A DNA stretch of 41,125 nucleotides from Corallococcus exiguus. GTDB lineage: Bacteria; Myxococcota; Myxococcia; Myxococcales; Myxococcaceae. Both the position numbers and the translations under genes were made by a program. The notes beneath the pieces are model-generated. The model did not search any database and was not told where the DNA came from. It worked only from the letters and a program-made list of their open reading frames with translations. Location: NCBI RefSeq assembly GCF_013248915.1, contig NZ_JABNNE010000050.1. One strand, given 5' to 3'. Shown here one piece after another: positions 7,832-10,673 of the stretch; position 1 is the stretch's first letter, and the number at the start of each line of letters is the position of its first letter.

Positions 7832-9556
7832 CTACTTGTTGATGCGCACCATGGCCACGTCGTAGTGGCGCTCGGTCACGTAGCCGTTCGCGGCCTTGCC
7901 GGGGCGGTACATGTTCCCGGTCTTGTCATCCACGTAGAAGCGGTTGTTCGGGTTCGTGTCCTTGCCCGTGCTGGCGTTCTTCGTGCCCGGGTCGTGGAAC
8001 GTGTAGTAGGTGCGGCCCTTGTCGTCGACGCCGCGGCCCGTGATGGTCACGAAGTGGTCCGTGAGGCCGTCCGCGTTGTAGCTCGCGTCCTTGTGGCTCA
8101 CGCCCACGACCACCGGCTTGCCGGCCTCCAGCTGCTTGTCGATGTAGCTGCGCCCCTCGGCGGCCTTCTTCGAGTCCACGTTGAGCGCGCCGACGCCGTT
8201 CTCGCTCTTGCCCACCTGGATGCGGCGGTCCGGGCCCAGCACGGTCGCGCCGGAGTCACGCGCCATCGCCGTCGCGGCCTTGAAGCACGCCGTGTCGCTC
8301 GCGGTGTAGCCGTGGCCGTTCTCGAACTGGCTGTAGTACGGCACCTTCACGTGCACCGCCGGCTTGTCCTTGGACGGGGCCACCTGCTCCGTGTTCGCGG
8401 GAGCCGCCTCCGTGGTGGGCTTGGAGGTGTTCGTGCCCTGCGTCGTGGGCTTGCCTTCCGTGGTGCCCGGCTTCGAGCCGTTGTTCACGGACGGGGGAAC
8501 CACGCCCGTGTTGGTGTTGGCCGGCTTCGTCGTGGTGCCCGACTTCTCCTGCTTCAGCATCGCGAGGGCGTCCTTCGCCTCCGACTTGAAGCGGTTGGCC
8601 ACGCCCTTCTGCACGTCCTTGGAGCTGCCGGAGAAGTGCACCAGGGTGCCGCTGGCGTTGGTGCGGCCGCGCTCGGCGTAGATGTCCTTGATGAGCTGCT
8701 CGTCGCTCACCTTCGCGGGGTCGCGCCCGTTGAGCGCCTTCTTGAAGATGTCATCCGCCTTGCCCGGGCCGTGCTGCACGGAGGTGGACCAGGCCACGTC
8801 CCGCAGCGCCGCGGAGCGCTTGTCCAGGTCGATGCCCGTCGCCTTCTTGATGTTGGCGGCGCCCGCGTCGTAGTGCGTGGTCTTGATGTAGTCGTGCTGC
8901 GCCTTGTCGAAGCCCTTCGGGTCCTTCGCCGCCAGCTGCTTCCACGCGGCGGAGAACTCCGCGGTGCCCGGCTTGCTGCCCGACAGCGCCTTGTGGAAGT
9001 CCGGGTTCGTCTTCTTCAGCGAGTTGACGAACGACTGCGCGGACCCGTTCGCGGAGGCGAACTGGTAGGAGCCGTAGGACACGCCGCCCTTGTCACCCTT
9101 GCCCGTGGACACGGTGCCGGGGCCGCGCGCCTCGTACTTGCGGCTCAGCCCGCCCAGCTCCCCGTTGGTCGCGCTGCTGGAGTTCGTGTTCGCGGCGGGC
9201 GTGGTCGCCTTCGCGCCGTCCGTGGACTGCGTGAAGCTGTCGCCCGACGTCTTCGTCCCCGCGCTCGACTTGTTGGTGCCCTTCGTGTCGAAGCCGTCCT
9301 GCACCTTCAGCGTCTGGCCAGCCAGGATCTTGTTCGGATCCTTGATGTTGTTCGCCTTGGCCAGCGCGTCAACGGTCGTGTTGTAGCGCTTCGCGAGGCC
9401 GGAAAGCGTGTCGCCCGAATTGACGCGGATGTTGGAGACGGTCACGGAGAAGACCCCTCTATGTCTGGCCGCGACCAAAGGCGCCGCGGACGTGCTTGGA
9501 TTGCCCGGATTATCGAAAGGCAATGTGATCAGTTTCGCATTCCCAGTCACAATCAT
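7832..9556 (-). CDS. LysM domain + central unknown domain + C-terminal C39-like (papain-fold) cysteine peptidase; putative cell-wall-targeting hydrolase
   Basis: LysM near N-terminus ([48 protein letters not shown]); C-terminal VPYYSQ...[12 protein letters not shown]...[10 protein letters not shown] matches Peptidase_C39-like YYxQ/Cys/His pattern; Thr/Ser/Asn/Pro-rich linkers; no obvious signal peptide. Confidence 0.7.
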
Positions 9557-9578
9557 GTGAAACCAGTGATTCCAGCAA

Positions 9579-9614
9579 CTTCAGTTTCAACGGATCGATC
9601 CGCTGAGACTGAAG
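9579..9614. promoter_or_regulatory. nested dyad in divergent promoter region: CTTCAGT-N22-ACTGAAG enclosing the perfect palindrome GGATCGATCC
   Basis: Seen directly; lies ~25 bp upstream of both divergent start codons (9556 minus, 9639 plus). Confidence 0.3.
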
Positions 9615-9638
9615 AACCTGCCCAGGAGGACCAGTCCG

Positions 9639-10673
9639 ATGTCCAGGATCCAACCGGAATTCAAAAATTTGGCATTGCTGTTTGCCATTTGCGTCACGAG
9701 CGCGGTCCCGGACGCCTCGGCTCAGGGGTCCGAGGGACTCACGGGGGTCTATTCGAACAAGAGCGGGACGCTCGCCATCGTCGAGGGCAGCAACGAGACG
9801 CTCGTGCACTTCGCGGGCTCGTTCCCGCAGGGCAGCAGCGCGGGCACCTGCGATTGCGCCCTGGTCGTCCAGAAGAAGACAGCCACGAATTGGTCACTTC
9901 ATCAGGCGGGTGAGGAAGACGCCTGGACGCTGCGCGTCAATCCCAAGCAATTCGTCCTGGAGTCGGGTCCGTCACCGTCCTGTTGCGGCGCCGGCTATTC
10001 AGGCAAGGACACGTTCGCCCGGAGCACCTCCAAGCCGCTGAGCATCTGCAAGGTGAAGGTGTCCAAGGCGGTCTTCCACGCGTCTGACGCGGCCAACACG
10101 CCGCGCAAGGCGTTCGTGGTGTCCGGGGACGCGGTGGAGGCCTACGTCGACCCGGTGGAGCCGGACTTCCTCGCCGCGCGCTTCCAGGGGCCCCAGAAGG
10201 CCACGGCGGGGCTGCTCAAGCGCGAGGACCTGGACTGCGCGTCGGAGTCAGCGCCCACGGCCGCGAAGGCTCCCGTGGCCGCGGACAAGCTCCAGCCGTT
10301 CGGGGGGACGTGGGTGGAGCTGACGCGTCAGGGCAAGGGCTTCGTGGTGCTCAAGCCCTGCTCGGCCGCGACGCGCAGCTTCACCGTCAAGCCCGCGACG
10401 GGCGAGGTGGAGGTGCAGCTGGGCCAGGAGGCCACGACGATGAAGGTGACGTCCGTGGAGGCCGGCAAGGGCGCCGGGGCCTGGGTGCTGGGGCTCACGG
10501 CCGCGGACGGCAAGCCGGAGGCGCTCCAGTGGAAGACGGCCGACGCCGCGAAGGGCACCGTGACCGTGAGCAGCCCGGACCTCTTCTCCCAGAGCCACGA
10601 CTACGTGCGCCAGGAGAAGAAGTCCGCCTTCCCGTCCAAGCAGGAGACGGGGTGCGACGAGTTCGAGCGCTAA
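9639..10673 (+). CDS. secreted hypothetical protein (signal peptide, several Cys)
   Basis: Signal peptide LALLFAICVTSAVPDASA; strong RBS AGGAGG; no recognisable catalytic motif. Confidence 0.6.
   Translation: MSRIQPEFKNLALLFAICVTSAVPDASAQGSEGLTGVYSNKSGTLAIVEGSNETLVHFAGSFPQGSSAGTCDCALVVQKKTATNWSLHQAGEEDAWTLRVNPKQFVLESGPSPSCCGAGYSGKDTFARSTSKPLSICKVKVSKAVFHASDAANTPRKAFVVSGDAVEAYVDPVEPDFLAARFQGPQKATAGLLKREDLDCASESAPTAAKAPVAADKLQPFGGTWVELTRQGKGFVVLKPCSAATRSFTVKPATGEVEVQLGQEATTMKVTSVEAGKGAGAWVLGLTAADGKPEALQWKTADAAKGTVTVSSPDLFSQSHDYVRQEKKSAFPSKQETGCDEFER

Follow-up and report, generated by a model that had tools for sequence, protein, structure and literature searches.

A candidate two-domain cell wall toxin and its candidate fused two-module antidote are divergently encoded in Corallococcus exiguus

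The DNA analysed here (hereafter the window) is a 41-kb, high-GC (69%) stretch of contig NZ_JABNNE010000050.1 from the myxobacterium Corallococcus exiguus. It contains two divergent genes: an open reading frame (ORF) on the minus strand (7832..9556) that encodes a putative peptidoglycan hydrolase, which we call the effector, and a gene on the plus strand (9639..10673) that encodes an exported protein of 344 amino acids (aa), which we call the neighbour. The pair was pointed out by an initial reading of the nucleotide letters (the sequence-only reading), and our analysis indicates that it probably constitutes a polymorphic-toxin-type effector-immunity pair, in which a bifunctional peptidoglycan-hydrolase toxin is matched by a fused double immunity protein. 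The effector ORF is real, as first proposed, given its host-like codon usage with a GC content at third codon positions (GC3) of 0.95, similar to that of the adjacent genes. Its 574-aa product is 99% identical to a C. exiguus protein listed by NCBI as a 548-aa 'LysM peptidoglycan-binding domain-containing protein'. Recent horizontal transfer, considered because of the Lys/Asn/Thr-rich composition and lower GC content, was rejected on the basis of the host-like GC3.

Effector residues are numbered by the 574-aa ORF, and conservation refers to an alignment of the window protein with 18 homologues from Corallococcus, Cystobacter, Archangium, Myxococcus, Pyxidicoccus, and Stigmatella. As the sequence-only reading had noticed, there is an N-terminal LysM peptidoglycan-binding domain (residues 44-85, 9302..9427, minus strand; PF01476, E-value 2.4e-15, 56.6 bits versus a cut-off of 20.9). 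The central region of about 200 aa, for which a lysozyme-like identity had been suspected, belongs to the family of the VgrG3 C-terminal lysozyme/muramidase domain (residues 134-326, 8579..9157, minus strand). It matches T6SS_VgrG3-like_C (PF21277) over profile positions 1-182 of 183 with an E-value of 3.6e-53 (180.7 bits versus a cut-off of 27). A phmmer search of PDB sequences retrieved the structures of the C-terminal domain of Vibrio cholerae VgrG3 (VgrG3C; 4noo_A and 4nso_A, 1.5e-29), and the motif KYE...GDxGG(V/A)SYGxYQ is shared. The putative catalytic residues E142 (9131-9133) and D155 (9092-9094) are at least 90% conserved in the 19 homologues and align with KYE...GNGDYGG of 4noo_A; we take residues of this type to be the catalytic ones of VgrG3C. 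The only other Pfam match is a sub-threshold hit to LysM3_LYK4_5 (PF23473, 15.6 bits versus a cut-off of 29.3), and NCBIfam returned weak LysM-level matches to DipM, ActS, and MltD. The Pfam scan of the whole protein detected no fused VgrG (gp27/gp5-like) module, and the N-terminus is instead occupied by LysM. In other proteins, PF21277 is fused to PAAR, Rhs, WXG100, CHAP, and amidase modules.

The C-terminal 175 residues (400-574, 7835..8359, minus strand) form a predicted papain-fold cysteine peptidase that resembles the C-terminal domain (CTD) of the toxin BtaeB. An AlphaFold2 model built on 50 homologues has a predicted local distance difference test score (pLDDT) of 94 and a predicted template-modelling score (pTM) of 0.92. 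A Foldseek search of the PDB with this model identified 9JDD chain A (E-value 1.2e-14, template-modelling scores (TM) 0.76/0.72, 30% identity), and all remaining matches are generic papain-fold proteases with TM values of at most 0.35. 9JDD and 9JG8 are structures of the BtaeB CTD with BtaiB, the former crystallised with the immunity protein; BtaeB (Bfe7) and its immunity protein BtaiB were reportedly described by Li et al. in Cell Host Microbe in 2025, a study cited in PMC13402684. The relationship is also detected by phmmer (3.2e-21, domain residues 8-150), which aligns Gln, Cys, and His of the YYSQ, TAC, and DHF motifs, respectively. The predicted catalytic residues Q410 (8327-8329), C424 (8285-8287), H501 (8054-8056), and D522 (7991-7993) are invariant in the 19 homologues. 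Together with the confident model, this agrees with the initial description of VPYYSQ / DTAC / DHFV as the motifs of a papain-fold, C39-like peptidase. The match to Peptidase_C39_2 (PF13529) does not reach membership (18.6 bits versus a gathering score of 24, E-value 0.0029) and covers only the C-terminal third of the profile. Among the 50 homologues, 10 match PF13529 and 14 match BtrH_N (PF14399) at E-values of at most 0.01. The domain is a distant relative of PF13529, not a Pfam member, and 'C39-like' is right as a description of its fold. Elsewhere, it is fused to other N-terminal regions. The domain identities support the multi-domain wall hydrolase architecture that the sequence-only reading had proposed, and the effector is probably a peptidoglycan hydrolase with two putative enzymatic activities.

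Relatives of the peptidase domain occur in several other settings. In a Vulcanimicrobiota metagenome-assembled genome (MAG), it follows K/S/G-rich low-complexity sequence and a stretch that looks like a 3D (MltA/RlpA-type) domain on visual inspection (L028:716-2476), and in a Bacillota MAG it follows M/G/P-rich repeats (L029:5449-6528); neither protein has a classical signal peptide. Human-gut Bacteroidota contigs (L071-L074, L078, and L088-L089) encode further versions, some of which (L072, L078, L088) have lipoprotein- or Sec-type N-termini. Each of these genes is followed by one for a protein of 225-258 aa, most of which have signal-peptide-like N-termini and which may represent an alternative immunity or partner family. 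Myxococcus-type paralogues (L021-L027, L030, L050, and L054) combine LysM, a middle domain of approximately 230 aa (EGN..YGGHTDPGN..NRGSFSYQ), and the same peptidase. The middle domain has no Pfam match and no PDB sequence match. These paralogues have no homologue of the neighbour beside them, and their flanking genes are unrelated (ABC-F ATPase, porin, and ATP-grasp).

The effector gene is shorter than the ORF called from ATG 9556. Most of the aligned homologues, spanning six genera, start with M-T/S-x-V-S-N and continue directly into LysM. The equivalent position in the window protein is V38, encoded by GTG at 9443-9445, and a Shine-Dalgarno-like GAGGGG read from the sequence (9454..9459, minus strand) lies 8 nt upstream. 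Six sister loci (L001, L003, L004, L006, L007, and L009) have a stop codon a few codons upstream of LysM, and therefore the 37-codon N-terminal extension is not coding. Moreover, a conserved promoter-like element (9509-9536, see below) is situated downstream of ATG 9556, inside the supposed extension. Because of the conserved GTG, the upstream stops, and the position of this element, we place the predicted start at GTG 9445, which yields a product of 537 aa, not 574 (gene 7832..9445, minus strand, stop codon 7832-7834; coordinates verified). The spurious extension (9446..9556), which is not conserved as coding sequence, would really be 5' untranslated region (UTR), promoter, and upstream DNA.

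No signal peptide was found from any candidate effector start (M1, L27, or V38) or in the 19 aligned homologues, all of which run straight into LysM. The sequence-only reading had reported this lack and had raised a mis-called start as a possible cause. The start was indeed wrong by 37 codons, but the corrected start yields no signal peptide, and the lack holds across the aligned family. An upstream start with a signal peptide was rejected: the ORF cannot extend past 9556, and the extension is neither signal-peptide-like nor conserved.

The neighbour gene (9639..10673, plus strand, GC3 0.92) is preceded by a Shine-Dalgarno sequence (AGGAGG, 9624..9629, plus strand, read from the sequence). Its product has a predicted Sec-type signal peptide (residues 1-28, 9639..9722) with a cleavage site placed by eye between ASA and QG; A28 is nearly invariant, and the model has a pLDDT below 50 for residues 1-32. 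Eight cysteines are invariant or nearly so across homologues, and the protein probably holds four disulfides, in line with its first description as a secreted, cysteine-containing protein. None of the models in Pfam and NCBIfam matched, and a word-indexed search yielded just 19 relatives, of which those with a named source are all Cystobacterineae. AlphaFold2 predicts an all-beta protein (mean pLDDT 80; domains mostly between the 80s and the low 90s) that consists of an eight-stranded barrel (residues ~36-127), an SH3b-like subdomain (~135-200), a disordered linker, and a lipocalin-like barrel (~215-335). We divide it into two candidate immunity modules. Module N (residues 30-203, 9726..10247, plus strand) comprises the eight-stranded barrel and the SH3b-like subdomain with C71, C73, C115, C116, C137, and C200, and module C (residues 212-344, 10272..10670, plus strand) comprises the lipocalin-like barrel with the conserved pair C241 and C339.

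When 1.84 billion representative proteins were searched exhaustively with a profile of the neighbour, 76 proteins were retrieved at E-values of at most 1e-10 for the whole profile, mostly through the N-module region. The bulk of these are signal-peptide proteins of about 200 aa in which the N module (profile positions ~10-200) stands alone. The C module (~205-340) also stands alone, in signal-peptide proteins of about 155-180 aa. Since both exist as separate secreted proteins, we consider the neighbour to be a fusion of two modules, between which no homology is detectable (hhalign probability 1%). One barrel of the neighbour model has fold similarity to BtaiB, a match that is not pinned to the N or the C barrel. 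By sequence, a profile of 20 neighbour homologues searched against all PDB sequences up to an E-value of 10 did not retrieve BtaiB, and comparison with TsiV3, the immunity protein of VgrG3, revealed neither sequence nor fold similarity. The N module is thus a candidate for a previously unnamed immunity family for VgrG3C-type muramidases, distinct from TsiV3 and without a Pfam family. Across 21 effector-neighbour pairs (the window and other loci), the immunity modules evolve apart faster than the toxin domains, with mean pairwise distances of 0.40-0.41 versus 0.24-0.26.

The two genes are strongly linked. Among 20 genome loci that encode full-length effector relatives (53-93% identity), the neighbour gene is immediately upstream and divergent in 19. 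The pairing is kept in Corallococcus, Cystobacter, Archangium, Pyxidicoccus, and Myxococcus sp. despite otherwise unrelated flanking genes. Three additional loci (L034, L048, and L049) also carry the pair, which brings the total to 22 of 24 tripartite loci, a tally that includes one short, uninformative contig (L047). At L018, the sole exception at the genome level, the effector gene is an additional copy, the same genome carrying the pair at L012; in place of the neighbour, a Sigma70_r4-containing gene is divergent, and the promoter-like motif is missing as well. Corallococcus sp. RDP092CA (L031) has lost the intergenic region together with the 5' portions of the two genes in one deletion, which leaves only their 3' ends, facing each other. 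Hyalangium gracile has an orphan gene for the N-terminal half (N module) of the neighbour.

The chromosomal site, between an aromatic-amino-acid hydroxylase gene and a vault-protein gene, is stable across Corallococcus, and the effector locus is an indel hotspot. Between the neighbour and vault-protein genes of the window (10670-13239, minus strand) lies a two-gene block for an MXAN_6640-family HExxH metalloprotease with a MYXO-CTERM-like tail and an HmuY-like protein. The block is present or absent among Corallococcus, and is lacking in L001, L004, L006, and L007. In another Corallococcus sp. (CP114039.1, L034:5001-6943), the effector is followed by an extra gene for LysM and peptidase (282 aa, no muramidase) and then by an Exo_endo_phos-family lipoprotein gene, which suggests that the locus accumulates toxin modules.

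If a fused antidote serves a fused toxin, standalone modules are expected next to the corresponding standalone toxin domains, and the contexts we retrieved suggest this pattern in a small sample. The gene for one N-only protein (P0168) overlaps the stop codon of the gene for a PF21277 protein of 668 aa, and another N-only protein (P0171) directly follows a LysM-VgrG3C protein that has no peptidase (L045). In the case of the C module, the C-only protein P0185 and a peptidase-only protein of 242 aa, which shares 52% identity with the effector C-terminus, are encoded by a divergent gene pair (L043). Two further C-only genes are on contigs of 1.2-1.4 kb with no visible context. No cross-pairing of a module with the opposite domain occurs among the contexts retrieved. 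We considered whether the C module generally accompanies peptidase-only genes and rejected this, as it is seen in 1 of about 45 loci. The sequence-only reading had guessed that the neighbour is a periplasmic immunity or partner protein, and this guess is now backed by the linkage in 22 of 24 loci, the joint loss in L031, the co-occurrence of modules with domains, and the BtaiB-like model.

The intergenic DNA contains two candidate regulatory features. The first is a promoter-like element, GAAAC-N17-GATAAT (9509..9536, minus strand; -10 at 9509-9514), upstream of the effector gene. The corresponding motif, [ACG][ACG]AAC-N16-18-GAT[AG]AT, begins 88-98 nt upstream of the effector start (120 nt in L020). 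It is present in the window and in 18 of the 20 genome loci, across six genera, and inspection by eye adds L012. The window has no second copy, and none of 100 shuffles contained the motif. Its AAC-type -35 is, we presume, reminiscent of promoters for extracytoplasmic function (ECF) sigma factors; a scan of the intergenic region for the sigma-70 consensus found no sites.

The second feature is a 36-bp imperfect palindrome (9579..9614) with the halves CTTCAGTTTCAACGGATC and GATCCGCTGAGACTGAAG, in which 16 of 18 positions are complementary. It ends 25 nt upstream of the neighbour ATG and about 45 nt upstream of the effector -35-like element. The sequence-only reading had interpreted it as the site of a dedicated regulator. 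The palindrome is real and significant: it is the best inverted repeat in the window, both arms match as an 18-mer (reached by 0 of 100 shuffles), and its RNA-fold z-scores are -4.2 for the plus and -3.0 for the minus strand. All ten Corallococcus sequences have it, with 12-16 of 16 stem positions paired. That it is an operator for a dimeric regulator co-controlling both divergent genes is possible but doubtful. Its statistical rarity, its place in the shared intergenic region, and its retention in Corallococcus speak for this, as does the lack of strand bias in pair conservation, which fits a site in the DNA better than a structured RNA; strand-specific G-U compatibility favours the plus strand in L001 and the other strand in L003, L006, and L009. 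However, none of the other genera with the gene pair has the palindrome, and some of their intergenic regions, such as that of Archangium at only ~95-120 bp, are too short for it. The arm GAAACTGAAG (effector sense) is nearly invariant while the other drifts without double-sided compensatory changes, unlike two equivalent half-sites, and there is no linked regulator gene. Given its position 25 nt before the neighbour ATG, the palindrome could equally be part of the neighbour promoter or operator, or a hairpin in the 5'-UTR of its mRNA. The cross-genus regulatory feature, as judged from motif conservation, is the promoter-like motif and not the palindrome.

We propose that the effector, which has neither a Sec nor a Tat signal, is made in the cytoplasm and that, in a target wall, LysM would anchor it to glycan strands. 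The VgrG3C-like domain would then cut the sugar backbone in the manner of a muramidase or lysozyme, and the BtaeB-like cysteine peptidase (Q410/C424/H501/D522) would cut the peptide part as an amidase or endopeptidase. The neighbour, with its Sec signal and four probable disulfides, would be exported to the producer's periplasm, where module N may neutralise the muramidase domain and module C, assigned by gene context, the peptidase. It would thereby protect against self- or sibling-intoxication. Domain identities, the conservation of catalytic residues, the missing signal peptide, gene linkage, the module layout, and the structural resemblance to BtaiB are observations; the enzymatic activities, the inhibition of the effector by the neighbour, the assignment of modules to domains, and the export route are inferred. 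A signal-less effector adjacent to a predicted periplasmic partner is what characterises type VI secretion system (T6SS) cargo effector-immunity pairs for wall toxins, and this combination is found here.

Alternatively, the effector could act on the producer's own wall as an autolysin with a housekeeping or developmental role, such as in myxospore formation or germination, with the neighbour as its dedicated periplasmic regulator or inhibitor. LysM and hydrolase domains are common in autolysins, as the weak matches to DipM, ActS, and MltD recall; a periplasmic inhibitor could act as a regulator, and divergent genes with a shared control region suit co-regulation. We nevertheless regard this explanation as improbable. 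Without a signal peptide, the protein could not reach its own wall by Sec or Tat, and the patchy distribution, the clean joint loss in one Corallococcus, the extra paralogous copy, and the indel hotspot are at odds with a housekeeping role. In addition, both domains come from toxin families whose members are exchanged between PAAR, Rhs, and WXG100 carriers, and orphan immunity-like copies exist.

Several observations weigh against the effector-immunity interpretation or parts of it. Divergent orientation is unusual for effector-immunity pairs. The mapping of modules to domains rests on three standalone cases: approximately 45 other peptidase-bearing loci, including the Myxococcus-type paralogues, have no C module nearby, and the N module is found in only two of six VgrG3C-only contexts (five loci and one contig). 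Mirror-tree and partial-correlation analyses of domain versus module distances were dominated by shared phylogeny and gave no support for the mapping; if anything, the C module tracked VgrG3C better. Diverged immunity families that escape detection would be a likely explanation for the loci without modules. With respect to delivery, Pfam scans of the genes in the window and the annotated genes of L034 revealed no vgrG, hcp, PAAR, adaptor, or other secretion-system gene, and Pfam detected no N-terminal trafficking or marker domain (MIX, FIX, PAAR, Rhs) in the effector. A LysM-LysM-VgrG3C homologue elsewhere is encoded in a type III secretion system (T3SS) cluster, not a T6SS cluster.

We consider delivery of the effector to be Sec-independent, and the most likely route, tentatively assigned by analogy, is that of a T6SS cargo effector, because the solved members of both catalytic-domain families are T6SS toxins. 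The sequence-only reading, which leaned toward vesicles or other T6SS-independent export, is corrected in this respect, yet no T6SS gene is nearby. Many genuine orphan T6SS effectors also lack such linkage, so its absence weakens the T6SS assignment but does not disprove it. In Myxococcus, a T6SS is active and has effector-immunity pairs (PMC5801462).

It is also conceivable, though unlikely, that the same enzymology and immunity are coupled to a different, predation-specific or non-classical export route, such as T3SS* or the Kil/Tad-like machinery for contact killing in Cystobacterineae, outer-membrane vesicles, or lysis, with the effector lysing prey walls and the neighbour guarding the producer's periplasm. 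Besides the lack of T6SS genes and markers near the pair, this is consistent with the LysM-LysM-VgrG3C homologue inside an SctQRST T3SS cluster of another bacterium and with the hydrolases carried by outer-membrane vesicles. The needle-less T3SS* of M. xanthus is required for prey lysis, and T3SS* and Tad occur together only in Cystobacterineae (PMC10849154), a range shared by the fused neighbour family; LysM proteins are up-regulated during M. xanthus predation (PMC9548883). On the other hand, the only PDB sequence matches of both toxin domains are T6SS toxins, and the pair has no genetic link to kil or T3SS* genes. The pair is patchy within Corallococcus (L031), and a different paralogue replaces it in M. 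xanthus-type genomes. T3SS substrates usually carry a disordered leader, whereas the effector N-terminus leads straight into the folded LysM. As a separate observation on the T3SS context, the signal-less LysM-LysM-VgrG3C protein (L037:8001-9633 and L038:4684-6316) is followed by a 172-aa protein and lies beside SctQ/R/S/T-type T3SS genes, a phospholipase-like gene, and an ankyrin protein gene. That the pair is an effector-immunity module of contact-dependent prey lysis by T3SS* and Kil/Tad-like machinery, with the effector as lytic cargo, is decidedly speculative; a review of this machinery names no lytic effector for it (PMC10849154).

The effector-immunity pair proposed here has partial counterparts in several known systems. 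The central domain is homologous to VgrG3C, the toxin counteracted by TsiV3 (4NOO, 4NSO; PF21277), with the E...GDxGG...YGxYQ motif conserved, but unlike VgrG3 proper the effector is not fused to a VgrG module. V. cholerae VgrG3 itself carries a peptidoglycan-binding element. It is a wall-targeting, lysozyme-like effector that acts in the periplasm and is neutralised by periplasmic TsiV3, and its variant VgrG3cp likewise has a peptidoglycan-binding element (PMC9927483). BtaeB, named as a T6SS effector (Bfe7) of Bacteroides fragilis (PMC13402684), is a 617-aa cargo effector of Bacteroidota that is loaded via a dedicated adaptor, whereas the related domain here forms the C-terminal end of a myxobacterial LysM-muramidase fusion. 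The fourth catalytic position is Asp522 here and Glu in BtaeB, and BtaiB is a single domain of 125 aa without detectable sequence similarity to the neighbour. In Acinetobacter baumannii, Tae17 is a bifunctional T6SS peptidoglycan hydrolase with a glycan-strand-cleaving and a peptide/amide-cleaving domain (PMC11796386). It too unites two cleavage types in one modular antibacterial effector, the same functional logic as proposed here, but its families are lytic transglycosylase and amidase, it is encoded with and delivered by its cognate VgrG, and its abstract mentions no double-module immunity protein.

The peptidase shares the Gln-Cys-His-Asp order and the YYSQ-type motif before the nucleophile with papain-like PF13529/BtrH_N proteins and C39 peptidases. 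Unlike the classical C39 bacteriocin-processing peptidases, it is not part of an ABC-transporter maturation domain and has no leader-peptide substrate context. The overall architecture resembles endolysins and autolysins of phages and Gram-positive bacteria (LysM with lysozyme and CHAP or NlpC-P60), which likewise combine wall binding with two lytic domains and have no signal peptide. Some PF21277 proteins also carry Amidase_2 and PG_binding_1, as phage lysins do. An origin as a prophage, tailocin, or endolysin remnant (LysM, lysozyme, and CHAP-like peptidase, signal-less) is nonetheless extremely improbable: the window contains no phage, holin, or tail genes, codon usage is host-like, and the chromosomal position is stable across Corallococcus. 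A dedicated exported inhibitor partner is not an endolysin feature, and the domain families are those of interbacterial toxins.

The wider window encodes an M1 aminopeptidase, a LysR regulator, a short-chain dehydrogenase/reductase (SDR), the aromatic-amino-acid hydroxylase, the MXAN_6640-type metalloprotease and HmuY-like protein, the vault-protein homologue, NadC, valyl-tRNA synthetase (ValRS), response regulators, and GroEL. The vault-protein homologue (13325-15601, minus strand) is a 758-aa relative of the eukaryotic major vault protein (MVP) with Vault and Vault_2/3/4 repeats and an MVP shoulder domain (E-values down to 9e-45). Its conservation is 93-98% in every Corallococcus locus that extends to this gene. 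The valyl-tRNA synthetase (17193-20687, minus strand) has an extra C-terminal tail of approximately 110 aa that is Lys/Ala/Pro-rich and histone-H1-like (HC2, PF07382, 7.5e-11). Just downstream of the nadC-like gene is a perfect 15-bp inverted repeat with a 2-nt loop (16241-16272), probably a terminator stem, and a small insertion-sequence-type transposase fragment (HTH_Tnp_1) is located at 35608-35952 on the minus strand.

The single domains of the effector are already known, and the novelty of the locus is their combination, two wall-toxin domains behind LysM with a fused two-module immunity protein, and not a new principle. If the effector-immunity interpretation is correct, the pair would be a candidate antibacterial weapon of predatory myxobacteria, in which one protein attacks both the glycan and the peptide parts of peptidoglycan and is held in check by a two-module antidote. 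The BtaeB/BtaiB toxin-antidote fold pair, solved in 2025 from gut Bacteroidota, would then extend to soil Myxococcota. As a signal-less, 537-aa multi-domain wall hydrolase without linkage to secretion genes, the effector may provide a handle on the cargo of a myxobacterial T6SS or of the T3SS*/Kil prey-lysis system.

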